Notes: a model not told the origin generated them from the sequence alone. 64,000 bases of DNA from an uncultured Aminicenantes bacterium (GCA_965195285.1 CBDAFS010000012.1:32001-96000), one strand, 5' to 3'; shown: positions 21,660 to 48,173, numbered from the stretch's first letter. A program made the numbers and translations.

Positions 21660-22940
21660 ATGAAACGCACCATAGTAGTTGCCACCGTTCTATTTATTGC
21701 CCTGTTGATCCTGGTGTATTTTATATTCTTTCATACCGGAAATCAAAACTGGATACTGGATGATATCCAATTCAAGGCCCGGGACGGATTTGTCCTGGAT
21801 GCCTACCTGCTCCGGCCCGAAGTACCCCGGAAAAAATACCCGGCTGTGGCCTGCTTCCATCAGTTATGGGGAAACCGGGATGATTTTTTGAAACTCTTTC
21901 CCAAGCTGGCAGAAGCCGGTATCGTGGTCCTGGCTCCGAATTTTCCCAGGCAGCAGCCCACCTATGACCCCAGAAGGATCTCCGATTTGAGAAATACCCT
22001 TGATTTTCTGGAAAACATTGACTATGTGGATGGGCAAAAACTGGGGATGGTCACGGCCAGTTTTTCGGTTGAGACCGGTATGACTGCCATCAACCAGAAA
22101 CCCAATGTGATTGCCAGCGTGATGATTTCCGGACAGATTCTGCGTGAAAATTCCCGAAAGAGGCTGACCCATAATTCAAATCTGGCCATTTTTAATATTG
22201 CCAGTGTTCATGATGGCTCGCATTATCTGATCATGAAGGAATGCCTGGCCAGAAGCCTGAATCCGTTTTCCCGTTCATTCTTCATCGAAAAAAAGGAGGA
22301 TCCTTTTTCAATTCAGGCTCATGGCACCTTTGTCTTTGATGAAATTCCGGACAGTCTGGACCGGATTCAACAATTTTTCATGGATGTTTTCGGAATTTCC
22401 ATCAAAAATGAAAAATTAATCGATAAGGAGGTTTTGAAAAACACCGTTTATTTATCCTCAACCGACGGATTACCGGTAGTGGCAACCCTGAAGCTTCCCG
22501 AAAGTCCTCACCATCCTATGCCCGTAGTCATTCTGTATCCTCCCCAGTTTGAGAGTCGGATGTACTATGATAAACTGGCCGATCGGCTGGCAGAAAACGG
22601 GATTGCGGTTCTGGCTCCCAATACCAAACGAACTTGCCGTGAGCCGGTCAAGCTTCATCTCTGTGATAAGGAAATTCACGGCGCCCTTCAATATATTTTG
22701 AAAGACGGGCGGTTTGATCCCAGCCGCATTGCCCTGGTTTTTCCCTCATTCTACTTCCTGATTGCCCGGCAAATGATCGAAAACCGGGAAATTCCGGTGA
22801 AGATGGTGGTGATGATGGAGGCCGGCACCAAAAATTACGAAATTAATCCACGCAAAATAGACCATGCCGGTTATTGCTTTTATTACCTGAAAAAGCCCAG
22901 TCTGGGCCGGTTGAAATACATATTATTAAATTCATTATGA
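21660..22940 (+). CDS. Membrane-anchored protein with two tandem alpha/beta-hydrolase-like domains (degenerate active sites)
   Basis: Two repeats of DG..[LV].A.L..P...P.V...LAE.GI.VLAPN; elbows read TASFS and FPSFY instead of GxSxG. Confidence 0.7.
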   Translation: MKRTIVVATVLFIALLILVYFIFFHTGNQNWILDDIQFKARDGFVLDAYLLRPEVPRKKYPAVACFHQLWGNRDDFLKLFPKLAEAGIVVLAPNFPRQQPTYDPRRISDLRNTLDFLENIDYVDGQKLGMVTASFSVETGMTAINQKPNVIASVMISGQILRENSRKRLTHNSNLAIFNIASVHDGSHYLIMKECLARSLNPFSRSFFIEKKEDPFSIQAHGTFVFDEIPDSLDRIQQFFMDVFGISIKNEKLIDKEVLKNTVYLSSTDGLPVVATLKLPESPHHPMPVVILYPPQFESRMYYDKLADRLAENGIAVLAPNTKRTCREPVKLHLCDKEIHGALQYILKDGRFDPSRIALVFPSFYFLIARQMIENREIPVKMVVMMEAGTKNYEINPRKIDHAGYCFYYLKKPSLGRLKYILLNSL

Positions 22941-23722
22941 TGAAAATATTCGGATTGCATCGGGCCTGTATTTTGGGTTTTGTCCTGTTTTTGTTCATTC
23001 TATTTTCAGTTGCGGCGGTTCCCCGATTACCCGGGGGTGATGCTGAACCGGATCCCCGAATCGGAGCTCAGGTGTTTATACGTTCCGGGAATTATTATGT
23101 GGGAAACCCGACCGAAACAAACACTCAGTCCCACCGACTGATGGCATTCAGAGATTTTTATATAGATATCCACCCGGTGACCAATTTTCAATATGTGGAG
23201 TTTATTAACCGGAGCCGTTATCATCCACGGGGAAAGTTCAGCATTGAAGAGGCCCGAAAGAATCCCTGGCTGCCGGCCACCGGCCTGATCCATGCTGATG
23301 CCGAGGCCTTTGCCGATTTCCATCAGAAACGCCTGCCCACGGAATGGGAGTGGGAAATTGCGGCGCGTTCTCTGGAAAAGGATGTGTTGTATGCCATCGG
23401 ATCTCTGCCCACTCTGGAAACCGGTAATTTTTACCGTTATAAACAGAAGAACGGGGTCACTCCGGGTTTTTCCTACCCGCCCAATAAACTGGGAATATAC
23501 GGGATGGCCGGAAATGTGTTTGAATGGACATCCAGTTTATATCCGATCGAGAAACTCAAGGGGGCCTATTTTCAGAAATACCGCCTCATGGTTTTAAGAG
23601 GAGGTGCCTGGACCAATATTCCCCATGATGTGCGAGTGACAACCCGGACACCGTTTCCGGCCAGCAGAAGTCTGGAATGGCTGGGATTCAGGTGTGTTTC
23701 TGAGAAACCGGTCCAGCATTGA
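22937..23722 (+). CDS. FGE-sulfatase (SUMF1/EgtB/PvdO) domain protein, exported
   Basis: PVTNFQY, RLPTEWEWE.AAR, PN..G.Y.M.GNV.EW, RGGAW, GFRCV. ATG overlaps the upstream TGA. Confidence 0.87.
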   Translation: MMKIFGLHRACILGFVLFLFILFSVAAVPRLPGGDAEPDPRIGAQVFIRSGNYYVGNPTETNTQSHRLMAFRDFYIDIHPVTNFQYVEFINRSRYHPRGKFSIEEARKNPWLPATGLIHADAEAFADFHQKRLPTEWEWEIAARSLEKDVLYAIGSLPTLETGNFYRYKQKNGVTPGFSYPPNKLGIYGMAGNVFEWTSSLYPIEKLKGAYFQKYRLMVLRGGAWTNIPHDVRVTTRTPFPASRSLEWLGFRCVSEKPVQH

Positions 23723-26211
23723 CAACAATGAAAAAGAACCTGGTTCAAATCATTTTGATAACTCTCATTATTTTGTTTTCATTTGGATTGCGAATTTATT
23801 CGCCCACAGCAGACTTGCCCCCTGATATTTCATTCAGCGGTAGTATCTATACCGATGAAGGCAACCAATGTCACAATTCCAGAAGCAAGGTCCTCTTTGA
23901 TGATTGGTCTCCGGATGACTGGCGTATCAGCAATTACAGCCCGGTTGTTCCGTTCATGAAGTACCTGATTTTTAAAATATTCGGGGTGGGATTGGTTCAG
24001 GAGAGGCTGGTATCCTATATTTTTGCCTTCTTCTCTTTGCTGTTGTTTTACCTGATTCTGAAATCTTATTTCAGTTTTTCCTTTACCCTTCTGGGAACAG
24101 TAGTCATGGGGCTCAATTTCTTTATGGTGATGTATAACCGAATCGGCACTTTTGAAACCCCCATGATGTTCTGGATGATTCTCAGCCTTTATTTTGTCGA
24201 AAAATTCCGGTCCAGTGAAAATCCGCTCTACCTTTCACTTTCTGCTGCCTCTGCTTTTCTGAGCTTTGTGTTTAAAAATATCGCCGCGTATTTTGTTCCG
24301 GTTCCCCTGGCAGCGGTGATCATCTGGTTTTTACTATTTAAAACACCGGGAAAGGAATCCTGGAAGAAAGGTGTCAGGCTTTTTGGTTTTGCCTTTCTGG
24401 GAGCGGCTATTGCCATAGGACTATGGGTTGTCCTTTTTTATATTCCCAACCGGGAATGGATTCTGAGTGTGCCGGGCCAGTATATTTCCAACCAGGTGTT
24501 GCCCAAAACCCTGGATCAGGCCATTCATAATTTTTACGGGTTCAACTGGAAGGAACAGTTTTACAAAATTCCGGTGGTATGGCTGTTGTCACTTTTATCC
24601 GTTCCCTATTTAATCAGAAAAGTGGTGCAGAGAAAAATTGATATAACCGGGATCGGGTTCGGAATGTTGTTTTTCTTACATACCCTGTTTTTCATGTTCA
24701 TGAATCACCGGCCTACCCGGTATTTGATCCCGGTGATCCCGGCCATGATCTTCATGTCTGTTTTGTTTTTGAAGGCCATAACCCGTTTGCCCGGTAGCAG
24801 GCGGTTTGAATATTCATTTTTTCAGAAAGCGGTTATTTTCATATCCGATACCCTCTGGCTGGGACTGGCTGCCAATTTCTGTTTTTTCCCCCTCTGGGAC
24901 CGTTACCTGAAATCCATTCAAATTCCGCCTCTCTCCATCCGTTATGTTGTTTTTTCGGCCTTATTGATCGGATTGCTGATTTTTTTGAAAAAACTCTATA
25001 TTCGATTTATGGCCGGGCGGATCCGTTTGAATTTTAAACCGGTTTCATGGCTGCTGATCATTTTGCTGACAGGCATATCCCTGGCCAGCAATCTGTCCAA
25101 TTACCTGAAATGGAATAGGGACAAGACCCATACGGTCTATCAAATATCTCATGAACTGGGAGAAAAGCTGGATAATGCATATATCGCCGGGTTGACCGCA
25201 CCGGTGGCGGTGCTTGAAAACACCCATCGGTCTCTGTTTTTGTATCCCGATTTTGTAAACTGGGATCAGAAGACATTTGAGCGGTATCCCCTGACTCATG
25301 CCTTACTGGCCAGTTTCAATCAGGAAATAAGCCATTTTTTCAGGCAATGGCCGGAAAGAATGAATCAGGCCCGGCTCCTGAAGGTCTACAATGTGAAAGA
25401 CCAATTCTTGCACTTGTATTCTTTTGTAGATCCATTCATTGTTCAGGCCAGGGAAATCCGGGGTCGGGGAATAGAACTGAGAATTCTGAATCCTTCCGAT
25501 GGCCCGGTGAAAGTCGGCATCGGAAAGATTTTCTTTTTCAATAATGCGGGTGAACGGATCGGGCCTGAGAGTCATTTTATTGAAGAGGCAAATGAGATGG
25601 TTGTATTAAATTCCGGTGAAAATGAGCTGGTTCTGGAAGATGCATTTTCAGATCAGCCAAATCCGGTATCCGTTCTTTTATTTCTGGACCTGAAGGGGTG
25701 GAAGATAAACCACCGCTACGAGGCAGAAAAGTTTCCCGGTAAAGTCGGGGAAAACATCAGAAATGTCCGGGCCTCCGGAGGTTTTACCCGGGGTTTCTTT
25801 CAGAAAAAACACCGGGCCGGCTTTCTGAGTTTCGGCCCCTTCATACCCTATTCGAAAGGCTTTTTAAAGGTTGATTTTTATTTGCAGTGTCGCCGGGTGA
25901 GGTCAAGAATCCGGCCGCTGGCCGAACTGGATATCTTTTCCTACAGTGATAAGCAGTCCCTGGATAAACGGGTATTGAAGCCCAGGGATATCCGGGATGA
26001 TGGTTTTAACCATTACCCGTTAACCGTCGCCCTTTCCGATCGGCATTTTCTGGAATTCCGGGTTTATGCCGAAAGGTTTGCAGATATTGATTTAGACTAT
26101 GTTAACGTGGTATATTATCAGGGGTATTTACTGAATATTAACCATAACAAGGGAAGTTCATTGTTGGCCAAGAGCACCCTTCAAGGAGGAATCTTCGGTG
26201 AAACAAGGTGA
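23719..26211 (+). CDS. GT-C-fold (GT39/PMT_2-like) glycosyltransferase with C-terminal CBM-like domain
   Basis: TDEG motif after TM1, FETP, FK, PTRY; about 13 TM helices; C-terminal RYEAE...FGPF beta-sandwich. Start may be ATG 23728. Confidence 0.8.
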   Translation: MTTMKKNLVQIILITLIILFSFGLRIYSPTADLPPDISFSGSIYTDEGNQCHNSRSKVLFDDWSPDDWRISNYSPVVPFMKYLIFKIFGVGLVQERLVSYIFAFFSLLLFYLILKSYFSFSFTLLGTVVMGLNFFMVMYNRIGTFETPMMFWMILSLYFVEKFRSSENPLYLSLSAASAFLSFVFKNIAAYFVPVPLAAVIIWFLLFKTPGKESWKKGVRLFGFAFLGAAIAIGLWVVLFYIPNREWILSVPGQYISNQVLPKTLDQAIHNFYGFNWKEQFYKIPVVWLLSLLSVPYLIRKVVQRKIDITGIGFGMLFFLHTLFFMFMNHRPTRYLIPVIPAMIFMSVLFLKAITRLPGSRRFEYSFFQKAVIFISDTLWLGLAANFCFFPLWDRYLKSIQIPPLSIRYVVFSALLIGLLIFLKKLYIRFMAGRIRLNFKPVSWLLIILLTGISLASNLSNYLKWNRDKTHTVYQISHELGEKLDNAYIAGLTAPVAVLENTHRSLFLYPDFVNWDQKTFERYPLTHALLASFNQEISHFFRQWPERMNQARLLKVYNVKDQFLHLYSFVDPFIVQAREIRGRGIELRILNPSDGPVKVGIGKIFFFNNAGERIGPESHFIEEANEMVVLNSGENELVLEDAFSDQPNPVSVLLFLDLKGWKINHRYEAEKFPGKVGENIRNVRASGGFTRGFFQKKHRAGFLSFGPFIPYSKGFLKVDFYLQCRRVRSRIRPLAELDIFSYSDKQSLDKRVLKPRDIRDDGFNHYPLTVALSDRHFLEFRVYAERFADIDLDYVNVVYYQGYLLNINHNKGSSLLAKSTLQGGIFGETR

Positions 26212-26935
26212 TCAAAAAAAGGTTTTAACCGATGTGCTGTTACCGGTATATAATGAGGAACATATACTGGAAAAAAGTGTGAACCGGTTGCGGGAATTTC
26301 TGTCCGCTGAATGCAAGCATTTAAACTGGATCATTTCAATAGGGGACAATGCCTCCACTGATAAAACTCTGGAGATTGCCAGAAAATTGGAAAAACAATT
26401 TTCTGATGTCCGGGTATTTCACCTCCCCCGGAAGGGTCGGGGCCGGATGGTTAAACATGCCTGGACCAGAAGCGAGGCGGATGTTTTGTCCTATATGGAT
26501 ATTGACCTGTCAACCGATCTGAAGGCATTTCCTCCCATGATCCAGGCCATTATAGATGGCTATGACATAGCCATCGGCTCACGGCAGTATAAGGGGGCGG
26601 ATGTGGATCGAAGCCTGCGTCGGGAAATCATATCCCGGGGGTATATCTGGGTATTGAAGCTTTTACTGCGTTTTCCCTTTACCGATGCCCAGTGCGGCTT
26701 TAAAGCCATCTCCAAACAGACTGTGTCAGAGTTGTTCTCCCATATTAAAGATGATGAGTGGTTTTTTGATACGGAACTGTTGCATATTGCCCACCAGGAA
26801 GGATACAAGGTAAAAGAAATTCCGGTTCGCTGGATCGAGGACCGGGATTCACGGGTTAAAATAATGAGGACTGCCTGGCTGGATATTCTGGGGGTTCTGC
26901 GTATGATAGGATATCGAAGGGGATCTTTGAAATGA
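26198..26935 (+). CDS. GT2 polyprenyl/dolichyl-phosphate glycosyltransferase
   Basis: LPVYNEE, DNASTD, MDIDLS, DAQCGFKA, WFFDTE, EIPVRW; GTG start with AGGAGG. Confidence 0.92.
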   Translation: MKQGDQKKVLTDVLLPVYNEEHILEKSVNRLREFLSAECKHLNWIISIGDNASTDKTLEIARKLEKQFSDVRVFHLPRKGRGRMVKHAWTRSEADVLSYMDIDLSTDLKAFPPMIQAIIDGYDIAIGSRQYKGADVDRSLRREIISRGYIWVLKLLLRFPFTDAQCGFKAISKQTVSELFSHIKDDEWFFDTELLHIAHQEGYKVKEIPVRWIEDRDSRVKIMRTAWLDILGVLRMIGYRRGSLK

Positions 26936-28302
26936 AAAAATCCATATTGATAACCGGCATCACCGGATTCGTGGGCCGCCATCTGCTCGAAAAAATGGAT
27001 TTGTCATCTTATCAGACGGTTTTTGGTTTGAGCCGGGAACCGGAAAAAATTTGTTTCCCGGATAAAGTTCCCAAAAATCTGAAAATGATCCGGGGGGATC
27101 TATTGCATCCCGAGTGCTACCGGTCGATCTTAAACCAGGTGGATACGGTGGTGCATCTGGCAGCGATAACTGGCAAGGCAGGCCGGGCTGAGTATCGAAG
27201 GGTAAATGTCCGGGCCACCCGGGAATTACTGGAAGCCTGCCAGGATTCGGGAGTGAAACATTTCTTATTGGTGAGCTCCATTGCCGTAAAATTCAAACGC
27301 CAACAGCGCTATTTTTATGCCCGTTCCAAACAGCAGGCTGAAGGTGAGGTCAAAAAGAGCGGGCTCAATTATACGATTCTGAGACCTACCATTATCCTGG
27401 GGGCCGGCTCCCCGGTTTTCAGCGGCTTTGCCCGGTTTGCCGGTTTACCGCTGGTTCCGGTATTCGGTAAAGGGGCTGTACAGATTCAACCGGTACATGT
27501 GGCTGATGTGGCCGAGGTGATCCGGGATATACTGAATAAGTCGCTCTTCAAGGGGGACACTATTGAACTGGGGGGGAACCAGACAGTTACTATCAAGGAT
27601 TTCATGAAATTGCTGTCCTCCCGCTGCCAGACCGGCCCGGCCCGCTTCCTGCATGTTCCTCTGGGCCCTATGGTTTTTTTCCTGTTTCTGGCAGAACCCC
27701 TGCTGTACCCGATCCTGCCCTTTACTATGGGGCAGCTGGCCACTTTTCGCAATGATGGGATTGCTGATCCCCATGACGCGGTTGGCAGATTGTCTTCCGG
27801 GTTCCTGGGAATCGAGCGGATGATCGATGACAGTTTTCAGGCTCAGAAGGTTGAACTCCGGAAAAAGGATCTGGAAAAAGAATGCCGGGTTTTCTGTCAA
27901 TACCTGCTCGGGCAAAAGCCCGGTCCCTATGTGATGAAAAAATATTTGGATGTCCATCAAAAAATCGACATGAAGGCCAAAAACAAATTCGATCGGATAT
28001 TGGCCCGCCTGGGGGCCAGGAACCGGATTCTGGTCCGGGCCTGTGATTCGTATTCCCGTTTTTTCTATCCTTGCTCCCTGCTTCGAAAGAAGTTGGTTTA
28101 TCTGTTGGCGATTCTGGAAACCGCCTCTCCCCACGCCCAGATTATCGATCGATCGGATAACCAGGGAAAATTCATGTTGTTGTTTATCATGGGATTGAAG
28201 GGAATGGGGCTTGTCTTTTTTCTGATTGTATCGTTTCCGATTTTATTTCCCCTTCAGGTTGTCCTAAAATCCAAACAGACGGGGGAATTGAACCATGGTT
28301 AA
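26932..28302 (+). CDS. NAD(P)-dependent epimerase/dehydratase (SDR) with C-terminal extension and TM
   Basis: ITGITGFVG, VHLAA, YARSK (YxxxK), LRP; extra about 150-aa C-terminal domain. Confidence 0.85.
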   Translation: MKKSILITGITGFVGRHLLEKMDLSSYQTVFGLSREPEKICFPDKVPKNLKMIRGDLLHPECYRSILNQVDTVVHLAAITGKAGRAEYRRVNVRATRELLEACQDSGVKHFLLVSSIAVKFKRQQRYFYARSKQQAEGEVKKSGLNYTILRPTIILGAGSPVFSGFARFAGLPLVPVFGKGAVQIQPVHVADVAEVIRDILNKSLFKGDTIELGGNQTVTIKDFMKLLSSRCQTGPARFLHVPLGPMVFFLFLAEPLLYPILPFTMGQLATFRNDGIADPHDAVGRLSSGFLGIERMIDDSFQAQKVELRKKDLEKECRVFCQYLLGQKPGPYVMKKYLDVHQKIDMKAKNKFDRILARLGARNRILVRACDSYSRFFYPCSLLRKKLVYLLAILETASPHAQIIDRSDNQGKFMLLFIMGLKGMGLVFFLIVSFPILFPLQVVLKSKQTGELNHG

Positions 28303-29911
28303 AATAACGGTTGTGGGTTCCGGGGCCAGTGGTGTCCATTTTGCGCTTTCCGCCCTTAAAAAGGGACATCAGGTTGAAATGCTGGATGTGGGGTATTCAG
28401 CTCCCCCCAATGTGAACCCGGAGTTTTCTTTCATTGATATCAAATCCAAACTGGAGGACCCGGTTGCCTATTTTTTAGGTGAAAACTATGAGACCGTAGT
28501 TTCCCCCGATTTTGACAATGAGATCTACGAATTCCCTCCCAATAAGATGTATATATTTAAAGTCCCCCCGGGTTTCAAATCCGACAGCAGGGATTTTGAT
28601 CCGCTGTTTTCTTTTGCCCGGGGCGGGCTGGCCGAGGCCTGGACCGGGGGAAGCTATCCATTTAATGATCAAGATCTGGCCCTCTTTCCCTTTGACTATG
28701 AAACCCTGAAGCCCTATTACGAGGAGATTGCCGAGCGGATTGGTCTGATTGGAGACAGGGATGATATTTCCCGTTTTTTTCCTTGGCATGAGAACCTTCT
28801 CCCTCCCCTGGAACTGGATGAGAATTCAAAAATAATTCTGGAAAAATACCAAAAACGGAGAGAACTACTCAACCGGAAAATGGGTTTTTATTTGGGCAGG
28901 TCCAGGATTGCCACCCTGAGCGTTGATAAGGGGGATCGCAAGGCCTGTGACTATTCGGGAAGGTGTCTCTGGGGATGTCCCAGTGATTCCCTGTATGTTC
29001 CCTCATTGACCCTGGCCGATTGCCAGAAATACGAACATTTCAGCTATAAACCCGGTGTGCTGGTCGAACATTTTAAGGTCAATTCCCGGAAGCGGATCAC
29101 ACACCTGGTTTTCCAGGATCTGGCCCTTCAGAAAAGAGGGGAAATAAAAGTGGATAACCTGGTGTTGGCCGCCGGCACCCTCTCATCATCAAAAATTTTC
29201 CTGGATTCCGTTTACCGGCAAACCGGAAAAATACTGAAACTGGAAGGTCTGATGGACAACCGTCAAATCCTGGTTCCTTTTTTGAACCTCAGTTTAATGG
29301 GAAAATCATATAACCCGGAGTCCTATGTGTATCACCAACTGGCCGTGGGTTTCGAGTGTGAAAAGACTTCCAATTACATTCACGGTCAGATCACCACCCT
29401 GAAAACGGCCTTGATTCACCCGGTGACCCTGCAGATGCCGCTGGACTTTAAAACGGCAACCTACCTGACCCGGAATCTGCATTCGGCACTGGGGGTCATC
29501 AACCTGAATTTCTGCGATACCCGGCGAGCGGATAACCAGCTCACCATTGAGCCGGATTCAACCGGCAAGCAAGACCAGACTACCCTGAAAATTACCTATC
29601 AATCGATTCCCGACGAAAAAACCATCATTTCTTCAGCCACCAAGCGAGTGATGAAATTCCTGAGAAAACTGGGGTCGATTGCACCACCCATGATGATCCA
29701 ATCCCGGCCCATGGGGGCCAGTGTTCACTATTCGGGGACCCTGCCTATGAGCACTACCGATGAACCACTGGGTGTCACACCGGATTGCCGGAGCCGGGAT
29801 TTTGATAACCTGTTCTTTGTTGACGGAACCGTTTTTCCGTTTTTACCGGCAAAGAACCTGACCTTTACCATGATGGCCAATGCGGCCCGAGTTGCAGATA
29901 AAGTCTTTTAA
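28295..29911 (+). CDS. GMC-family FAD oxidoreductase
   Basis: VVGSGASG, C...G.C..GCP, LAAGTL, HYSGT.PM, NLFFVDG, NLTFTMMANA.R. Confidence 0.88.
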   Translation: MVKITVVGSGASGVHFALSALKKGHQVEMLDVGYSAPPNVNPEFSFIDIKSKLEDPVAYFLGENYETVVSPDFDNEIYEFPPNKMYIFKVPPGFKSDSRDFDPLFSFARGGLAEAWTGGSYPFNDQDLALFPFDYETLKPYYEEIAERIGLIGDRDDISRFFPWHENLLPPLELDENSKIILEKYQKRRELLNRKMGFYLGRSRIATLSVDKGDRKACDYSGRCLWGCPSDSLYVPSLTLADCQKYEHFSYKPGVLVEHFKVNSRKRITHLVFQDLALQKRGEIKVDNLVLAAGTLSSSKIFLDSVYRQTGKILKLEGLMDNRQILVPFLNLSLMGKSYNPESYVYHQLAVGFECEKTSNYIHGQITTLKTALIHPVTLQMPLDFKTATYLTRNLHSALGVINLNFCDTRRADNQLTIEPDSTGKQDQTTLKITYQSIPDEKTIISSATKRVMKFLRKLGSIAPPMMIQSRPMGASVHYSGTLPMSTTDEPLGVTPDCRSRDFDNLFFVDGTVFPFLPAKNLTFTMMANAARVADKVF

Positions 29912-29925
29912 TGAACGAGGAGAAT

Positions 29926-31518
29926 ATGAAGAAAATACTTTTTGGTTTACTGGCTCTCTTTCTGGTACTGAACCTGTTTCCGGAAATTGACAAAAAAAAC
30001 AATCAGAAAAAAACGTTAACATTTGAAAAAGCAGTGGCCTGCCGGGCAGTTCTTGAAATCAGGTCACTGGTCAGCGGATCTGTTTCCGAGGTGCTGGCCG
30101 CCAAGGGGGACCGAGTCACAACCGGCCAAATATTACTCCAGTTTGATGTCTCGGGGCTGGATGAGGAAATCCGGACAGCAGAGCAGAGTCTGGAAATATG
30201 GGAAAAAACACTCTTCAATCGTGAACATTGGAAGGTTCGCAGCCAGCCAGCCGAAAACCAGGCCAAAAGAAAAATAGAGGAGTTTAAAACCGATATTAAA
30301 AAGAAAAAACAGCAGAAATCCCGGCAGCGGATCCATTCGCTGATTGAGGGAAGCGTATTGGATATTGTTGATGAAAAAATGCCGGTGGAAGAGGACCAGG
30401 TAGTGGCCCGGATCGGGGATGATTCGGTGCTCAAAATTGAATTAACCCCGAATGACTCCAACCGGAATGTTCTGGCAGAAATTCAGGATGGAGAAAAAAT
30501 ATCTCTGACCTTTAAGAAAGTCAACCTGGCCTGTTCCGGGGAGATCAAAAAAGTGAATGATCGAATGGTCATTCTTATTCCCAATGACAAATACCTGCTG
30601 AAACCGGGAATGATGGCCAAATTCCAGTTCACTTATGATATCCAACCGGAGATCCAAAAGGTACTGAAACAACCCCAGGTCCGGCCGAAAGATCTTCAGT
30701 ATATAAAAGAGAAAAAGATCGGATTTGAAATTTCAGCCGGGATGTCATGGTCGGATCCCGGCGAATATTACGACCGGGCTTCAGGGATTGACAACCTGAT
30801 GGATCAGTACATCCAAAACTACGGCCTGGAATATACGATCAGCGGTAAATTCGGAAAGAATATTATTTATTTTCCGGTCAATGTCCTGGTCAATTACCGG
30901 ATTTCGGAAAAATGGTATCTGAAAGCCGGCCTTGAGTTCGGTTATGGCAATCAATCCAGCCAGAAAACCTACCATTTAAACTGGACCACCACAACCGAGG
31001 ATCACCGTTACAATCTCTCTTCAAAATTAACCTATTTCATGCCCTTTGTGGGAGCGGAAAGACGGTTCGGAAAATTTGGTGTTTATGCAAATGTGGGATT
31101 GAATTTGCTCAGCTTATCCCACCAGAAAAATCTGGAAATATCAGAATCCACTTACTGGTACAGGCAGGATGAAGACATCTCGGCCACTGGCACCGGTATC
31201 GGAATACTGGTGGGAGGAAAATACAATTTTCTCATTGGTAAAAAAACGAACCTGATTCTAAAGCTGGAATTATGTTATTTGAAAGTGAGCAACCTGTCCG
31301 GGAGCCGGGACGCCTCTATTACAAACTCGCTCGGAGAATCCCTGTCTGAATCCATTCAGGGGACCATTTACAGTTTTGAGATAAATCCCTATGACCTGGG
31401 CTGGTTTTATACCTGGGAAATGTTTGGTTCGGTTCCCGGTGAGTCCTGGATTCGAAATGTGAGCGAGATGGCCATCAATATGTCCAGTATTCGGCTGATG
31501 CTGGGAATTAAATTTTAG
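29926..31518 (+). CDS. Fusion: HlyD/RND periplasmic adaptor (MFP) plus C-terminal outer-membrane beta-barrel
   Basis: Signal peptide; lipoyl half IRSLVSGSVSEVLAAKGDRV..GQIL, coiled coil, second lipoyl half, LKPGM; amphipathic strands ending IRLMLGIKF. Start follows GAGGAG. Confidence 0.75.
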   Translation: MKKILFGLLALFLVLNLFPEIDKKNNQKKTLTFEKAVACRAVLEIRSLVSGSVSEVLAAKGDRVTTGQILLQFDVSGLDEEIRTAEQSLEIWEKTLFNREHWKVRSQPAENQAKRKIEEFKTDIKKKKQQKSRQRIHSLIEGSVLDIVDEKMPVEEDQVVARIGDDSVLKIELTPNDSNRNVLAEIQDGEKISLTFKKVNLACSGEIKKVNDRMVILIPNDKYLLKPGMMAKFQFTYDIQPEIQKVLKQPQVRPKDLQYIKEKKIGFEISAGMSWSDPGEYYDRASGIDNLMDQYIQNYGLEYTISGKFGKNIIYFPVNVLVNYRISEKWYLKAGLEFGYGNQSSQKTYHLNWTTTTEDHRYNLSSKLTYFMPFVGAERRFGKFGVYANVGLNLLSLSHQKNLEISESTYWYRQDEDISATGTGIGILVGGKYNFLIGKKTNLILKLELCYLKVSNLSGSRDASITNSLGESLSESIQGTIYSFEINPYDLGWFYTWEMFGSVPGESWIRNVSEMAINMSSIRLMLGIKF

Positions 31519-31554
31519 AGGCGAGTATATTCTGTACTGAAATGGAAGTATGAA

Positions 31555-32886
31555 ATGGAAGTAAAGAACAACGTCAGGCTGTTGATCCTATTGCTGGTTC
31601 TGGGAGTGTCGATGTGCCTGTTGATCGCCCCGGGATGCCGGCCGGACCGCTCCGTCCTGCCCAATGTGGTGGTCATTGTCATTGATACCCTGAGGGCAGA
31701 TCATCTTCCCTTCTATGGTTATCCCAAAAACACGGCCCCTTTTTTGGCTAAACTGGCCTCTCAGGGTGTTCTCTTTGAAAAAGCCTATGCGACTTCTTCC
31801 CTGACCGCCCCTTCCACCGCTTCGTTGTTTACTTCTTTTTATCCGTTTCAACACGGTGTGGTCCTGAATATTGGCGGAACCATCAAACTTCGGAAAATGG
31901 CACCCAAACTGAAGGTGAAATTAAACAAAATACCTCCGGAGATCACCACTCTGGGAGAAATATTCAAACAGGCCGGGTACAGCACATACGGGGTTTCGGA
32001 TAATATCAACATCGGTGACAAAGAAGCGTTTGATCAGGGATTTGATAAGTTTTCAACCTTTACCTACCGCGGTGCGCCGGCCATCAACCAGCAGGTAAAG
32101 GAATGGGCCGATGAAATTAAAAGCCGGGAACGGTATTTCCTGTACTTGCATTACATGGATCCCCATCAACCCTTTTTTGAACGGAAACCCTGGTATCAAA
32201 AGCAGGATGATCCTCGTGATAACCAGGTGGCCATGTATGACAGTGAAATTAATTATGCGGATCAACATATCCGGGAACTCCATGAGTTGTTTAACTGGTC
32301 GGAGAATACCCTGATTGTGGTGACCTCTGATCACGGTGAAGAGCTCTGGGATCATGGCCTGAAAGGACACGGTTATTCCCTGTTCCGGGAAGTCATTCAT
32401 GTCCCCCTGATGTTTTATTATCCCGGTGGTCAATTCAGTGCCGGAACCATAAAAGAGAATGTCAGCCTTATCGATGTGCTGCCCACCCTGAACGAATTTC
32501 TGGGATTGCCTCCGGACAAGGAGCATGAGGGAATCAGTCTGTTGCCCCGGATTATCGGGAGTGAACTGCAGTTACCCCAGCGGTTTTTATTTGCCCATCT
32601 GGTGGATCACAGTTTTTCAGAAAAAATGGCAGAGACCGAATCCACTCTCTATGAAAACTGGCATTTTATCAAGAATTTTTCCGGTTCCTGGTATTTATAC
32701 AATCTGAAACTCGATCCCGGTGAAAAATACAACCAGCAGGTCGGAGATCACGGAATTGCCCGCCGGCTTTTTGCCCGCTACCGTGGATTCAAAAAAAAGT
32801 GCCGGATTTTCAAACATGATAGTACCTCTTTTTATCTGGATGAAAAACAGATTGAGAAATTGAAAACACTGGGTTATGTGAAGTAG
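31555..32886 (+). CDS. Sulfatase-like lipoprotein (Thr at nucleophile position), paralog of 10785-12107
   Basis: Signal ending APGC; PNVVVIVIDTLRADH, LTAPSTAS, YLHYMDPH, SDHGEE; C-terminal LKTLGY. Confidence 0.88.
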   Translation: MEVKNNVRLLILLLVLGVSMCLLIAPGCRPDRSVLPNVVVIVIDTLRADHLPFYGYPKNTAPFLAKLASQGVLFEKAYATSSLTAPSTASLFTSFYPFQHGVVLNIGGTIKLRKMAPKLKVKLNKIPPEITTLGEIFKQAGYSTYGVSDNINIGDKEAFDQGFDKFSTFTYRGAPAINQQVKEWADEIKSRERYFLYLHYMDPHQPFFERKPWYQKQDDPRDNQVAMYDSEINYADQHIRELHELFNWSENTLIVVTSDHGEELWDHGLKGHGYSLFREVIHVPLMFYYPGGQFSAGTIKENVSLIDVLPTLNEFLGLPPDKEHEGISLLPRIIGSELQLPQRFLFAHLVDHSFSEKMAETESTLYENWHFIKNFSGSWYLYNLKLDPGEKYNQQVGDHGIARRLFARYRGFKKKCRIFKHDSTSFYLDEKQIEKLKTLGYVK

Positions 32887-32914
32887 TTTAAATTGGCATT
32901 AATGGGGTTCAAGG

Positions 32915-32943
32915 TTGACTTTTGGGTTCCACTTAAGTATAAT
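32915..32943 (+). promoter_or_regulatory. sigma70-type promoter
   Basis: TTGACT-17-TATAAT; AAGGAG RBS before ATG 32977. Confidence 0.75.
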
Positions 32944-32976
32944 TCCATATCTTTTAAAGGAAAAAAGGAGTTGTTG

Positions 32977-34956
32977 ATGAGAAAAATCAATTTATCTGTA
33001 CTCATTATTTCAATGATCATGGTTGTTGGGATGAATGCATATGCTCAGACTGATGATACTTCGAAAAAGGGGTGTCCGGAGTATATTGATTATTTAAAGG
33101 CAAACAAAGAAATCATAAACTATAACACTTATGGCTTAATTGAAGGCATTGAAGAAGTCGTGCTCAAAATTTATTCCCATAAGGAGTCACAGGATCAACT
33201 TTTAGGGAGCCTGCAGGATTTTTTATATACCCGCTATGAAGTCAAGGAATTTTCCGAAGATCAAATCGTCATTTCCATTTATTTCCCGGTTTCCCGGAAA
33301 ACTGAGACGAAAGCTATTGTTGCCCCGGTAACCGCAAAGGAAATGAAGCCGGAAAAGACACCGGAAACCCGGGAACCTGAGGCCGTGATAGTGATTCTGC
33401 CCCAGCCGGAACCGGAGAAAGAGGACTGCCCCGGCAGGGTGAAAGTCCAGGTCAGGAAGATCGGATATCAGGTTTTCAAGGAGTATAAATATTTTGAGGA
33501 AAGTTTATCATTTGACAGGGATGTTGAATTGAGAACCCAGCTGACCGCCAGTGTTAAAGAGGTGGCGGTTGCTGACGGTGACCGGGTACAGGAGGGCCAG
33601 ATTCTGGTTCGGCTTGATTCCGGTGTGATCGAAAAAGAGATCAAAAGCGTGGAAGAGTTAATAAAAAACTGGAAGACTATTTTATTCAAACGTCAAAACT
33701 GGAAGGTCCGAAGCCCGAGAGCTGAAAAGCAGGCCCAGGAAAAAATCCAGGAGAGTGAAATCCTGCTGGCTCAGAAAATGGAAGACCTGTCCAAAACCCA
33801 GATCAAAGCACCCTTTGACGGCAAGGTGATTTATATAATTCCAGAGGGTGAACCCCTGGAAATCGGTGCCACGGTACTGAGGATGGTGTCCGATAAATTG
33901 ATGAAAGTATCGGTTCCGGTTGTTGATTCAGGATTGTTTTCCCAGGGAATGGATGTCCGGATTTCCTCGACCGAAGTGGAAGGTGAATTCCCGGGAAGGG
34001 TCAGCAAAACCGAGACCGAAACCAAAATAGTATTGAGGAATGAGGATTTGAAATTGTCAGAGGGCATGAAGGTCAATTTCCGGGTTCTGTACAGGGAATA
34101 TGATCAGGCCATGGTGATTCCGGAAAAAGAGGTCTTGAAAGATGATTCCGGTTATTATGTTTTTGTGGTGGATGCCAAACGGGCTGCCCTGCGCAGGCTC
34201 AACGTCGGCGTCATTGAATCCGGAATGGTACATGTGCTTTCCGGGATCAATATCGGTGAGGAAGTGATTGCCACCGGTTTGAATTGCCTTCAGGATCGAA
34301 AGAAAATCAAGGTGATGATCTGGGATGCCGTGCTAGGGAAATTGAGGCCAAGAAAAAAGAAAGAAATCATTGAAGCCCCGGTTATTCAGCCGGAAGAGAT
34401 TGAAATTCCGGTTGAACGGGTCATTAAAAAGAAAAATTATTGGCGGGTTGGCGGCGGACTGGGAGCCTGTATCGGAACCGGCAGTGTGTTCTCTGATGTC
34501 TATGGTAGTTTTGTTCCGGCCGGTTTTATTACCGCTTCCTTCACCATTAACGAGAAGGTTGAAATCTTCTTTTCTACTTCCTATATCACTGCCAGCGGTA
34601 AGGCCACGGAACTGGATGACAAGGTCACTCTGACCATGATCCCGATTTATATCGGAGCAAAAATCCATTTGAACAAGATAAAAAAGTTTACTCCCTTTGT
34701 CGGTGCGGCAATGTCCAGGTACAATACCAAGGAATCATTTCCGGCAGGGAATGAATATCATGAGACCACCAGTTACCGTTCCAATTTTGGAGGTTCGGGT
34801 TTTGTAGGGACCTATTTTCCGATCGGTAAAAAGCTCGATTTGACCGTGACCCTGAAATATGATTTCAGCCAGGTTGCCATGGAAGAAGGCGAGGAAAAGG
34901 TTGATCTTTCCGGCTTCAGGCTGTTGATCGGCGTTACCTATATCCTGGGCCGCTGA
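32977..34956 (+). CDS. Fusion: N-terminal domain, complete RND periplasmic adaptor (MFP) and C-terminal outer-membrane beta-barrel
   Basis: Signal peptide ending AYA; V.DGDRVQEGQILVRLD, IKAPFDGKV, LSEGM, IP...V....G.YVFVV, GI..GEEV membrane-proximal domain; about 8-strand barrel (IPIYIGAK, PFVGA, GFRLLIGVTY). Confidence 0.8.
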   Translation: MRKINLSVLIISMIMVVGMNAYAQTDDTSKKGCPEYIDYLKANKEIINYNTYGLIEGIEEVVLKIYSHKESQDQLLGSLQDFLYTRYEVKEFSEDQIVISIYFPVSRKTETKAIVAPVTAKEMKPEKTPETREPEAVIVILPQPEPEKEDCPGRVKVQVRKIGYQVFKEYKYFEESLSFDRDVELRTQLTASVKEVAVADGDRVQEGQILVRLDSGVIEKEIKSVEELIKNWKTILFKRQNWKVRSPRAEKQAQEKIQESEILLAQKMEDLSKTQIKAPFDGKVIYIIPEGEPLEIGATVLRMVSDKLMKVSVPVVDSGLFSQGMDVRISSTEVEGEFPGRVSKTETETKIVLRNEDLKLSEGMKVNFRVLYREYDQAMVIPEKEVLKDDSGYYVFVVDAKRAALRRLNVGVIESGMVHVLSGINIGEEVIATGLNCLQDRKKIKVMIWDAVLGKLRPRKKKEIIEAPVIQPEEIEIPVERVIKKKNYWRVGGGLGACIGTGSVFSDVYGSFVPAGFITASFTINEKVEIFFSTSYITASGKATELDDKVTLTMIPIYIGAKIHLNKIKKFTPFVGAAMSRYNTKESFPAGNEYHETTSYRSNFGGSGFVGTYFPIGKKLDLTVTLKYDFSQVAMEEGEEKVDLSGFRLLIGVTYILGR

Positions 34957-35770: not shown

Positions 35771-35798
35771 TCGTGACATTTATTTGATATTTTTTTTC

Positions 35799-36716
35799 AT
35801 GCGTCACCCTAGAATTACTTACAAAGATGCCTTTCACCATGTTATGAATAGGGGAATTAATGGTGAGAAGATATTTGAATCTTCAAAAGATAAAAAATAT
35901 TTTCTTGAATTGGTTTTAGAGAAATCAAAGATTTTAAAAATCAGGATTCTTGCTTGTTGTATTTTAGATAATCACTTTCATCTAATAATTCAAAATTGTT
36001 CAGGTAAGATGAGTGAATTCTTGAAAAGGATAAATAGCCAATATGGATATTATTATAGGAAGAATGTAGGAGGGCATGGATATGTATTTCATGGGAGATA
36101 TAAATCAACATTAATTCAGGAAGACGAATATTTAAAAATGTCACTTTTATATTTATTTCTCAATCCTGTTCGTTCTGGCATCGTATCAAATCCATTTGAA
36201 TACAACTGGTCAAGTATTCAAGAATTGTATTTAGCGAGACGAACCAGAAAACTAACGGATTATAAATTCATAGAGGGATTATTTGGAGACCGAGTGAATT
36301 TAGTGGATAGCTTGAATATTTGGATGAATAAAGAGTTACCAATAGAACAAAATCGTTTTGGAAATTTTTTGGGTGACAATAAATTCCTGCCCAAATCACT
36401 TAATCTATATAATAGAAGGAGAAAAAAAGGAATAAGTCGTAGGATGAGAATTTTTGATCAATATTTTAAAGGAGCCACTCAAATCATATCAGAATTTGAG
36501 AATGAAAAAGGAGTTACGTTGGACAAAGTTGATTTTGTTAGTATAGAAGGTAAGGGATTGAGGGGAGAATTATTGGTGCGATTAAAGGATGAAGGTGGCT
36601 TGAAATATACAGAAATTATTAACTATCCATGGTTTGAATCCTTGAAGTATAATTCTTTAGGTCAGGTCTATAAAAGAACAAAAGTGAAACTAAATAACAA
36701 GGTGAAAATAAAATAA
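35799..36716 (+). CDS. REP-associated tyrosine transposase (RAYT/Y1_Tnp, IS200-like HUH) with C-terminal extension
   Basis: HHVMNRG...IF, NHFHL (HUH), GHG.VF.GRYKS, Y...NPVR.G.V..P..Y.WSS. Confidence 0.9.
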   Translation: MRHPRITYKDAFHHVMNRGINGEKIFESSKDKKYFLELVLEKSKILKIRILACCILDNHFHLIIQNCSGKMSEFLKRINSQYGYYYRKNVGGHGYVFHGRYKSTLIQEDEYLKMSLLYLFLNPVRSGIVSNPFEYNWSSIQELYLARRTRKLTDYKFIEGLFGDRVNLVDSLNIWMNKELPIEQNRFGNFLGDNKFLPKSLNLYNRRRKKGISRRMRIFDQYFKGATQIISEFENEKGVTLDKVDFVSIEGKGLRGELLVRLKDEGGLKYTEIINYPWFESLKYNSLGQVYKRTKVKLNNKVKIK

Positions 36717-46261: not shown

Positions 46262-47254
46262 TCAGGGGAGGGTGCGGAGGAAACTGCGCTTGGCGATTTC
46301 GGCCAGTAAAAATATGATCAGGGCGATCAGGATAAAATAGGGGTAGAGATCCCGGGCCCGGGAGTATTTTTTGGTAGAGACTTCGGATTTCTCCCAGCGA
46401 TTGATTTCGGAGAATACCTGCTGCAGTGAATCCTTGTCTGTAGCCCGAAAATAGAGGCCGCCGGTGTCGTTAGCAATCTGCTGCAACAGGGCCTCATCGA
46501 TCTCCACGTTTACCATGATGTACTGTCTGCGGCCGAACTGATCGGTAATGGGAAACCGGGCTTCTCCTCTTTTACCCACCCCGATGGCATACACTTTGAT
46601 GTTGAAATCCCTGGCAATTTTGGCTGCATCCCGCGGATCGATTTCCCCCCGGTTGTTGACTCCGTCGGTCAGCAGGATAATGATTTTGGTTTTGGTCTTG
46701 GCATGGCGTATCCGGTTGACCGAGGTGGCCAGGGCCATACCCAGGGCCGTACCGTCTTCCAGCTCTCCGATGGAGGTTTCCCTTAGTACATATCTAAGTA
46801 ATTCGTAATCAATGGTCAGTGGACACTTGGTGTAGGAGGTGCCGGCAAAAATCACCAGCCCGATCCGGTCGTTTTGTCGCTCATTGATAAAATTGGATAT
46901 GACATCCTTGGCCACTTCCAGTCGGTTCTTGGGTTTGAAGTCTATCGAGGCCATGGAACCGGAAATGTCCAGGGTAATAAGGATATCAATCCCCTGCTTC
47001 TTTTCAATCTGATAATAATTCATCAGCTGGGGCCTGGCCAGAGCCAGGATGAATAAGACCAGGGCCAACAGTTTGAAGAAAAATAAATTTTTGGTCAGGC
47101 GCACTTTCAGGGACTGGCTGGAATCTGCCAGCAGTTTCTTGGAGGAAAAGAAAACAAAGCGTTTTCCCCTTTTTTGCATGAGGAAATGCCAGTAGATCAG
47201 CACCGGGACCATGATCAGCCCGATTAAAACAAGTTTATTGTGCCATTGAAACAT
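46262..47254 (-). CDS. batA: BatA-like VWA domain membrane protein
   Basis: LARPQ, DISGSM MIDAS, PLT.D, GTA.G, LLTDG.NN.G, TGG.YFRA. Confidence 0.88.
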   Translation of the reverse strand: MFQWHNKLVLIGLIMVPVLIYWHFLMQKRGKRFVFFSSKKLLADSSQSLKVRLTKNLFFFKLLALVLFILALARPQLMNYYQIEKKQGIDILITLDISGSMASIDFKPKNRLEVAKDVISNFINERQNDRIGLVIFAGTSYTKCPLTIDYELLRYVLRETSIGELEDGTALGMALATSVNRIRHAKTKTKIIILLTDGVNNRGEIDPRDAAKIARDFNIKVYAIGVGKRGEARFPITDQFGRRQYIMVNVEIDEALLQQIANDTGGLYFRATDKDSLQQVFSEINRWEKSEVSTKKYSRARDLYPYFILIALIIFLLAEIAKRSFLRTLP

Positions 47255-48173
47255 CTTGGTCTTTATTTTCCTCGATTACGATGGCTTTTTGTATTGATAT
47301 GATGGACTCGATCCCGGACTTTACTGCTTCAAGATCCGAGGAACCCGGCCGGAATTTGGCAAATTTCACCAGATCCGCTGTGGCGAATATAAATTCAAGG
47401 TTCTGTTGGATGGTGGTATTTTCTTCATTACGCTCCACATACATCATGGTTTCGGCAGTGGTCAGATCCTCGGCATTGAATCCGTATTCCCGTTGGAGAT
47501 AATTTTTGATTATTTCGGTTAAGGCGATGAAAAATTGTTTTGCCCGGCCTTTTTCAAGCCAATTCTTTTTGAATAGTTCACTGATGGATGATTCCAGTTC
47601 TTCCAGGGGAGAGAGAAGGAGTAGGGGCCTGGATTTTGTCTGTTGCTTTTTCTTGCGGATAAACAGGAAAATTAAAACCACCAGTAAACCCAGGGCCAGA
47701 AGTAAAAAGGCATACTTTAAGACATAAAACGGATTGCCCCGAATGGAAATCAAGTCCTTGATATCCTTGATGTCTTGATCTGATTTTTCCAATACGGATT
47801 TTATTTTGATATCCAGTGAATTGGTCGTTTTTTCCTCAACAATTTTGTGATCTCGGATCGTTTTTACCCGAAAGGGCCCGATGGTATGATTCCCGGTTGA
47901 AAAAAAAGAGACCACCTCATGGATTTCGAATACGGTGTGCTCCCTGGATTTCCGGCCGGGGAAATGATGCTTTGAAATCGATTCGAAGTTTTTCTCAAGA
48001 ATATCCACTTGGATATTATTGATTTCCAGAGTGGTTTTTACGACAATTTTCAGGGTAATCCGGTCCCCGATGGTGGCGATATTTTCAGATGCGGACAGGG
48101 AAACCTGGAGTTCAGGATACAGCAATCCGGTGGCAAGCAGGAAAAAAAGCAGTAAAGGCAGTATGGTTCTCAT
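47235..48173 (-). CDS. Bat-operon membrane protein (BatD-like N-terminus)
   Basis: Signal peptide, IKDIK before the TM, TT.E, ADLVKFAK; lies between DUF58 and batA. Confidence 0.8.
   Translation of the reverse strand: MRTILPLLLFFLLATGLLYPELQVSLSASENIATIGDRITLKIVVKTTLEINNIQVDILEKNFESISKHHFPGRKSREHTVFEIHEVVSFFSTGNHTIGPFRVKTIRDHKIVEEKTTNSLDIKIKSVLEKSDQDIKDIKDLISIRGNPFYVLKYAFLLLALGLLVVLIFLFIRKKKQQTKSRPLLLLSPLEELESSISELFKKNWLEKGRAKQFFIALTEIIKNYLQREYGFNAEDLTTAETMMYVERNEENTTIQQNLEFIFATADLVKFAKFRPGSSDLEAVKSGIESIISIQKAIVIEENKDQDVSMAQ

Follow-up and report, generated by a model that had tools for sequence, protein, structure and literature searches.

Two fusions of an efflux-type adaptor to an outer-membrane barrel in an uncultured Aminicenantes bacterium and their possible role in the cell envelope

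Passages of reviews on bacterial efflux describe periplasmic adaptors as proteins that act from the inner membrane, with their α-helical hairpin pointing towards TolC. In the parts of PMC4446572 considered here, the RLS motif (MexA R119, L123 and S130) is proposed to dock OprM/TolC, some working adaptors are noted to lack it, and functional engineered AcrA tandems are described; part of PMC4158417 describes EmrA as an adaptor with lipoyl, hairpin and β-barrel domains only. We analysed two genes, open reading frames ORF1 and ORF2, that lie between positions 29926 and 34956 of a 64,000-nucleotide stretch of DNA from an uncultured Aminicenantes bacterium (GCA_965195285.1 CBDAFS010000012.1:32001-96000; the window, with positions counted from its first letter). 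An earlier description of this DNA (the original prediction) had presented their products as efflux adaptors fused to outer-membrane β-barrels, with neither a pump nor TolC encoded nearby.

Profiles, structural models and fold matches together show both products to be exported two-module proteins, in which a predicted OmpA/NspA/OmpW-like barrel at the C-terminus sits in the outer membrane and a MacA/MexA-type adaptor lies in the periplasm. The anatomy of these fusions is secure; the mechanism is not. Our preferred reading, held tentatively, is that of an inverted, outer-membrane-anchored adaptor whose conserved hairpin tip would dock a partner on the inner side of the envelope. No adaptor-outer-membrane-barrel fusion is described in the literature searched in full text, which agrees with the original prediction, whose author knew of no characterised protein of this architecture. 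The passages of two reviews mention no such fusion either, and a literature search on Aminicenantes gave nothing relevant.

Anatomy of ORF1 and ORF2

ORF2 (32977-34956, plus strand) encodes a secreted protein of 659 residues, counted from the methionine at 32977, that is made up of an N-domain, an adaptor and a barrel. Its listed frame of 687 residues starts at a TTG at 32893; homologues instead begin at MRKINLS (32977). ORF1 (29926-31518, plus strand) encodes a secreted adaptor-barrel fusion of 530 residues from the methionine at 29926; the listed frame, 535 residues long, starts at the ATG at 29911, and homologues begin at MKKILFG (29926). Read by eye rather than with a predictor, the N-terminus of ORF2 (...MNAYA/QTDD) has a signal-peptidase-type AYA/Q site and no lipobox cysteine, and the N-terminus of ORF1 is hydrophobic, signal-like and free of cysteine, so neither protein looks like a lipoprotein. 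The hydrophobic segment seen in each bears out the signal-like N-termini first claimed for both, and a hydrophobic N-terminal run is found in 78 of 80 fused relatives. The N-terminus of ORF1 may be an uncleaved signal anchor.

The adaptor module of ORF2 (33424-34362, plus strand; residues 150-462) has all four adaptor domains, the membrane-proximal domain included. TIGR01730 RND_mfp scores 105.1 bits against a cut-off of 94.9, matching residues 158-446 of the 659-residue protein (186-474 of the 687-residue frame). In the AlphaFold2 model (predicted local distance difference test, pLDDT, 79.2; alignment of 19 rows) the complete four-domain adaptor spans residues 150-460, with hairpin helices at 216-240 and 247-272. 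Foldseek matches it to MexA, AcrA and MacA with E values from 1e-18 to 3e-20, and an exhaustive structural aligner places residues 153-444 on MacA (5nik_D) with a Z score of 17.5 over 289 aligned residues. Searched as a whole in the Atlas, ORF2 returned ordinary adaptor clusters only, with scores of at most 0.80. ORF2 shares the lipoyl, hairpin, β-barrel and membrane-proximal fold of MacA, MexA and AcrA, but differs from them by its signal-like AYA/Q N-terminus in place of an inner-membrane anchor, the lack of a lipobox cysteine and the added C-terminal barrel. Two near-invariant cysteines of ORF2, C151 and C437 (about nucleotides 33427 and 34285; KKCPxRV... and ...CLKD), flank the membrane-proximal domain, and a disulfide between them could lock the N- and C-terminal strands of that domain.

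A Lys/Glu/Pro-rich linker (34363-34437, plus strand; residues 463-487), with pLDDT below 50 over residues 469-484, joins the adaptor to an eight-stranded outer-membrane barrel (34438-34956, plus strand; residues 488-659). The modelled strands, 12-17 residues long, lie between residues 488 and 657, and are connected by loops of 12, 6, 13 and 11 residues and turns of 3, 6 and 4. Since long and short connections alternate, as they do in outer-membrane barrels, both ends of the ORF2 barrel are expected on the periplasmic side. With the exhaustive aligner its best matches are Legionella Dot/Icm porin III (Z 17.7) and NspA (Z 17.5; 154 residues aligned, root-mean-square deviation 2.5), followed by OmpW (Z 17.2) and OmpA (Z 16.1). 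Hydrophobicity alternates in five of the eight strands. The protein ends in ...YILGR and thus without a C-terminal aromatic residue.

Ahead of the ORF2 adaptor the model shows a small α/β module of no known family, the N-domain (33064-33291, plus strand; residues 30-105), which is separated from the adaptor by a disordered linker rich in Pro, Glu and Thr. A profile of seven N-domain sequences found nothing convincing among the sequences in the PDB (best E value 0.16). Against Pfam the best E value was 0.041, in one of the seven sequences, and there was no usable Atlas match. Relatives carry this module before the adaptor, between adaptor and barrel, or joined straight onto the barrel. The genome that holds the window also has stand-alone barrels of the same type (C59:66161-66724, C41:29267-29887 and C1:338-910), and one relative has an N-domain-barrel protein without an adaptor (L050 14804-15775); barrel and N-domain thus behave as independent modules.

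The adaptor module of ORF1 (30004-30639, plus strand; residues 32-243 of the 535-residue frame) comprises a split lipoyl domain, an α-hairpin (helices 81-106 and 112-137) and a β-barrel domain. In its AlphaFold2 model (pLDDT 77.7; alignment of 11 rows) these three domains run to residue 243 and the membrane-proximal domain is absent; residues 245-265 are disordered, and the C-terminal outer-membrane β-barrel follows (30718-31518, plus strand; residues 270-535). TIGR01730 gives 33.8 bits, below its cut-off. The fold is nonetheless that of an adaptor, with Z 14.8 to MexA over residues 33-243 and Foldseek E values of about 1e-11 to MacA and MexA, so the HlyD/AcrA-type adaptor originally claimed in both proteins holds, with four domains in ORF2 and three in ORF1. 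In having lipoyl, hairpin and β-barrel domains only, ORF1 resembles EmrA (4tko, Z 13.7). It differs from EmrA in its short hairpin, about 26 residues per helix against a coiled coil of 127 angstrom, in its outer-membrane barrel and in having no MFS partner gene nearby. About ten relatives of ORF1's own type were found.

The ORF1 barrel is larger than that of ORF2, and some of its modelled strands are very long. Over residues 264/267-535 its VIA matches have Z scores of 15-17.5, among them Legionella Dot/Icm porin III (17.5), the N-terminal barrel of OprF (17.0), OmpW (16.4) and NspA (16.2). It ends in LGIKF, and its C-terminal phenylalanine is that of a β-signal; a terminal phenylalanine occurs in 50 of 87 fused relatives. 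The Pfam family OMP_b-brl (PF13505) stays below its cut-off of 28.7 bits in both window proteins (18.0 bits on ORF1 and 20.2 on ORF2), so that the barrel assignment rests on the models, the fold matches and those relatives that do pass. P0051 (30.3) and P0052 (29.5) exceed the PF13505 cut-off, P0096 scores 56.3 on PF13568, and P0049 and P0051 reach 24.6 and 25.8 on PF02462 (cut-off 21). Both C-terminal regions model as outer-membrane barrels, as had been proposed.

Overall, the fusion barrels match the small barrels (OmpA N-domain, NspA, OmpW and Opa; PF13505 and PF13568) with Z scores of 15-17.7. OmpA itself has its barrel first and a peptidoglycan-binding domain after it, whereas in the fusions the barrel anchors a large periplasmic adaptor from the C-terminus. 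Classical autotransporters place the passenger first and the barrel last, and this order of parts is the only feature in favour of autotransporter-like display, an option of the original prediction in which the barrel would export the adaptor module to the cell surface. The barrel of a classical (type Va) autotransporter, however, is twelve-stranded with a helical linker, and the nearest matches of the fusion barrels are small barrels of eight to ten strands. The ORF2 barrel is eight-stranded, with both its ends on one side, both barrels match the OmpA/NspA/OmpW types rather than twelve-stranded translocators, and the models contain disordered, charged linkers in place of a helix threading the pore. 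Surface display is therefore highly improbable.

The fusion family

A word-indexed search returned 23 clusters of 386-680 residues at E values of at most 2.6e-46 and, beyond these, only ordinary adaptors of 378-440 residues with E values of at least 5.7e-11. A HMMER scan with the family profile reached 91,709 proteins at E values up to 1e-3, which are adaptors in general, and 160 at E values up to 1e-30. The database label on the relatives, automatic and from one source, is 'membrane fusion protein (multidrug efflux system)'.

We parsed 191 collected proteins with three domain profiles cut from the family alignment and found adaptor and barrel together in 88 of them. The order is adaptor-barrel in 44, N-domain-adaptor-barrel in 26 and adaptor-N-domain-barrel in 6; among the other 12, ten have two or three adaptor modules ahead of the barrel. 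Apart from the 88 there are a few N-domain-barrel or barrel-alone proteins. Proteins with two or three adaptor modules per chain recall the fused TriA-TriB of TriABC (6vej, E 2.3e-16), but the tandems of the fusion family, in contrast to TriABC and the AcrA tandems, end in an outer-membrane barrel. The idea that the tandem proteins are fusions of an ORF1-type with an ORF2-type protein, in the manner of a Rosetta stone, was rejected, as both of their adaptor modules are closer to ORF2.

In a FastTree phylogeny of 178 adaptor modules, a branch with 99% Shimodaira-Hasegawa-like support splits 67 ordinary adaptors from 111 modules. The ordinary side includes seven of the genome's own eight ordinary adaptors, a 718-residue frame on contig C48 having been left out. 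All 88 fused modules lie on the other side, together with 23 from fragments or long proteins, of which at least three long ones (P0096, P0104 and P0119) carry a barrel that the profile missed. Fused modules are thus set apart from ordinary adaptors by this branch.

Misassembly, or a frameshift joining an adaptor gene to a porin gene, was considered as an artefactual source of the fusion. The fusion recurs in the 88 parsed proteins, which come from many assemblies, in seven named genome loci and as stop-free frames in sister genomes. The whole 5046 bases are also covered in one piece by an independent contig of 9392 bases from another study, that has 10 substitutions relative to the window and, downstream of ORF1, a gap of 13 bases in the spacer ahead of the sulfatase-fold gene. 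Relatives, sister-genome frames and the independent contig all carry the adaptor-barrel junction, and an artefact is ruled out for practical purposes, so that the fusion is real, as originally claimed. The 13-base gap (window 31538) is also present in a contig from an RNA library.

Seven loci lie in named genomes; the titles of five read Candidatus Aminicenantes, and those of the other two 'uncultured Clostridia'. Among 301 genomes of the phylum, eight of the nine other genomes of the window's family match at E values of at most 2e-56, with frames of 620-1040 residues. Outside this family one genome, from another family of the same class, matches strongly (6.5e-63), and the remaining matches have E values of at least 3.7e-37 and cover the adaptor part of the profile only, apart from a few stand-alone barrel frames. 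ORF1-type and ORF2-type genes occur together only in close relatives. According to their records, the sequencing runs in which the stretch occurs come from metagenomes of marine sediment, sediment and cold seeps. Seven pieces of RNA-library contigs (157-292 bases, one study) fall on ORF1, the sulfatase-fold gene and ORF2, which is only a hint of transcription, as RNA libraries can hold DNA.

Pumps, the hairpin tip and the orientation of the adaptor

Pump genes were searched for in the window, in the rest of the genome and in related loci. None of the 45 open reading frames of the window matches the genome's RND, MacB-type or OEP proteins or carries the ABC signature, and the genome-wide matches of PF02321, PF00873, PF12704 and PF07690 all fall outside the window, in line with the original statement that no RND, ABC, MFS or TolC gene lies there. 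No OEP family is among the profile matches of ORF1 or ORF2, which therefore lack the OEP repeats of a TolC-type outer-membrane factor. Elsewhere the genome has 14 PF02321 (OEP) matches, all on other contigs, about nine RND genes, four MacB_PCD frames and MFS transporters. The adaptor profile finds ten adaptor genes in it, eight ordinary ones and the two fusions. At most 73 bases separate each of the eight ordinary genes from an RND or OEP gene, and no RND or OEP gene lies within 6 kb of either fusion. The 707 frames of at least 100 residues from 26 related loci, 348,609 bases in all, gave no BLASTP matches to the genome's own RND, MacB-type or OEP proteins and showed no ABC signatures, the control being 19 of the genome's own open reading frames that carry the signature. 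None of the 26 thus supplies a cognate pump, and in this point too the original prediction stands.

These data bear on the explanation that the fusions are unorthodox adaptors of pumps encoded elsewhere, in which the barrel would stand in for the lipid or helix anchor, and the adaptor would form a substrate-exporting complex with an RND or MacB-type transporter and a TolC-type channel. In favour of it, ORF2 has the full set of four adaptor domains and exceeds the TIGR01730 cut-off, and MacA proteins are its nearest solved relatives by sequence and fold. Also in its favour, the adaptor profile finds nothing in the 6 kb around each of the four MacB_PCD-bearing frames, and an OEP gene is absent over the same distance from the RND loci C47 and C34. 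However, every RND locus of the genome is accompanied by an adaptor gene of its own, ORF1 has no membrane-proximal domain, and pump genes are missing from the window and from all 26 related loci. In addition, the linker between adaptor and barrel seems a short span to bridge between a pump-seated domain and the outer membrane. Measured from the end of the adaptor profile to the start of the barrel profile, it has a median of 35 residues (range 15-167) over 63 direct junctions. Service to unlinked pumps is therefore unlikely.

The hairpin tip argues in the same direction. The tip motifs WEKTLFNREHWKVRSQPAENQA of ORF1 (30199-30264, plus strand), which is kept in ORF1 relatives, and WKTILFKRQNWKVRSPRAEKQA of ORF2 (33670-33735, plus strand; W232-A253), the most conserved stretch of its family, both sit at the tips of the modelled hairpins, as the original prediction had said of a shared motif. 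In 19 sequences of the ORF2 family, down to 24% identity, W232, L236, R239, S246, E250 and A253 are invariant and W242, K243, R245 and Q252 nearly so. The stretch of sequence kept between ORF1 and ORF2 is this same basic, aromatic tip (W...L..R..WK.RS...E.QA). Its core, R..W[KR].[RK]S, is present in 66 of the 88 fused proteins, in 14 of 97 flagged as adaptor-only and in none of six barrel-only proteins. Nine of the 14 have 557-787 residues and five have 235-414, some of which look cut short; ten of them were scanned, with other outer-membrane barrel families found in four and none in six. In a HMMER alignment with the MexA hairpin of the 4dk1 chimera, R119, L123 and S130 of MexA correspond to R, K and E of the fusion family, so that one of the three RLS positions is kept. 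This counts against docking to TolC and against service to unlinked pumps, an argument weakened by the working adaptors that lack the RLS motif.

A tip rich in Lys, Arg and Trp would also suit a passive strut or tether, in which the outer-membrane barrel holds a rigid adaptor body whose tip binds peptidoglycan or sets the periplasmic spacing, with no partner in transport or enzymology. OmpA-type tethers consist of a barrel plus a periplasmic module, an arrangement that the fusions parallel. No partner gene is kept across the family, and the one to three adaptor modules of the relatives are spacer-like. On the other hand, the genome already has four OmpA_C-type frames. About ten invariant or nearly invariant tip residues at 24-33% identity suggest a specific protein interface, and ORF1-type genes keep a conserved place in an operon, which suggests a role in a pathway. 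We consider a purely passive tether doubtful.

The preferred reading, an inverted adaptor, starts from the geometry of the barrel. An eight-stranded barrel has both its ends on the periplasmic side, and in most relatives only 15-60 residues would tie it to the membrane-proximal end of the adaptor. With both barrel ends periplasmic and the linker this short, the adaptor is expected to hang from the outer membrane with its hairpin pointing inward, or sideways, the reverse of the classical adaptor anchored at the inner membrane. An even number of strands in the barrel and linkers as short as these (median 35 residues) agree with the outer-membrane tether and inverted adaptor of the original prediction. 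The tip would then be the working end, docking an inner-membrane machine or possibly the cell wall, and the proteins would be bridges from the outer membrane inward rather than drug-efflux adaptors. By analogy with solved adaptors the fusions probably act as oligomers, and the tandem adaptor-adaptor-barrel relatives would fit paired modules. They may serve as a strut or as a conduit.

Several points weigh against the inverted arrangement. The inward orientation is one that we infer by a geometric argument from linker length, and four of the 63 linkers are longer than 60 residues (72, 74, 147 and 167). The membrane-proximal domain is complete in ORF2, in keeping with a pump-bound role; to our knowledge, this domain contacts the transporter in every solved system. 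Oligomerisation is unsupported by the results of this analysis; a complex prediction with three copies of ORF2 180-306 and three of ORF1 44-170 scored 0.00 against a mark of 0.32, which speaks neither for nor against the hetero-oligomer suggested in the original prediction. The tree is a FastTree phylogeny only, unrooted and with long branches. Many of the related loci are short contigs, and near-duplicates (L029/L048 and L006/L030) make for fewer independent cases than 26. Finally, no neighbour is kept family-wide and no partner was found, the gene contexts varying by clade between a glycosyltransferase (GT-C) operon, asparagine synthase with an S9 peptidase, and BNR_4/PKD proteins.

Gene neighbourhood and significance

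Upstream of ORF1, Pfam identifies a row of plus-strand genes for a GT-C (PMT_2) glycosyltransferase (23719-26211), a GT2 protein (26198-26935) with weak similarity to polyprenyl-phosphate hexose transferases, an SDR epimerase-like protein with a membrane tail (26932-28302) and a GMC oxidoreductase (28295-29911), the last of which overlaps with the ATG, at 29911, from which the listed frame of ORF1 starts. Stops and starts overlap from the GT-C gene through to ORF1. In L001 and L002 the row runs in the same order up to an ORF1-type gene. So it does in loci of sister genera, L054, where the identity to ORF1 is 31%, and L053, whose contig holds the SDR, GMC and ORF1-type genes only. The row resembles a pathway in which a lipid-linked sugar is assembled, and perhaps epimerised, ahead of its transfer in the periplasm. 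Because it closes this conserved operon, at least the ORF1-type paralogue probably takes part in building or positioning a lipid-linked envelope glycan, though this link is weak. It is also open to speculation that the Pro/Thr/Glu-rich linkers of ORF2 are glycan acceptors.

The neighbours of ORF2-type genes differ between clades, so that only the ORF1 type has a stable operon. In the sister genera of L053 and L054 the ORF2-type gene lies elsewhere, encodes an N-domain-adaptor-adaptor-barrel protein and stands beside asparagine synthase and S9 peptidase genes. In other clades a BNR_4/PKD protein adjoins the fusion gene; these proteins, of about 600 residues and in two homology groups, flank it in seven loci and have no homologue in the window's genome. 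The original prediction had suggested that the fusions may serve the surrounding envelope-modification enzymes; a link to these genes holds for the ORF1 type with its conserved operon but does not extend to the whole family, which has no fixed neighbour.

Further observations concern the surroundings of the two genes. In L054 (12987-18897) and L053 (141-6044), genes for a TamB-family protein (1065 residues) and an Omp85/POTRA protein (902 residues) lie about 2 kb from the ORF1-type gene; they are a second link to outer-membrane biogenesis and do not adjoin ORF1 in the window. Between ORF1 and ORF2 lies a gene of the sulfatase fold (alkaline-phosphatase superfamily; 31555-32886, plus strand; Pfam Sulfatase 161 bits) with a signal or anchor, which stands between two fusions in the closest relative, L001, only and not in L002. 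Its product (TAPST) and a second sulfatase-fold protein (10785-12107; TSPAT) have T-x-P-x-T at the signature site, where formylglycine sulfatases carry C/S-x-P-x-R. Both might use a threonine nucleophile and act on phospho- or other esters, as hydrolases or transferases. A gene with an FGE-sulfatase domain (22874-23722) is part of the same gene row. In L026 and L027 (33% identity) the ORF2-type gene comes directly after asparagine synthase and a homologue of window 13-828. The window itself has sulfatase-fold and glycosyltransferase genes over about 30 kb between 13-2780 and ORF2, which suggests a lineage insertion or expansion. Just downstream of ORF2 lies an IS200-like gene (Y1 transposase family; 35784-36716). 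This gene and a TrmO gene are missing from the syntenic L001, which points to a local insertion between ORF2 and the ferredoxin-oxidoreductase genes. An unrelated BatA/VWA/DUF58 row, an aerotolerance-type operon, occupies 46262-49051.

A bolder form of the inverted arrangement would have six adaptors forming a pore-less, TolC-like α-helical tunnel, tip to tip with an inner-membrane machine, that conveys lipids, or glycans linked to them, to the outer membrane's inner face. We regard this as improbable; if true, it would be a TolC-independent route across the envelope, with the ORF1 type tied to the GT-C/GT2/SDR/GMC operon.

If the inverted arrangement itself is true, the adaptor fold has been reused for another envelope task, with an anchor in the outer membrane, the TolC-docking motif dropped and the pumps left behind. 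Its practical value will stay modest as long as neither a partner nor a phenotype has turned up. The family would be a natural experiment for telling the adaptor surfaces needed in assembly from those that contact the pump, and it would open a way into the envelope architecture of Aminicenantes, an uncultured group that is widespread in sediments.

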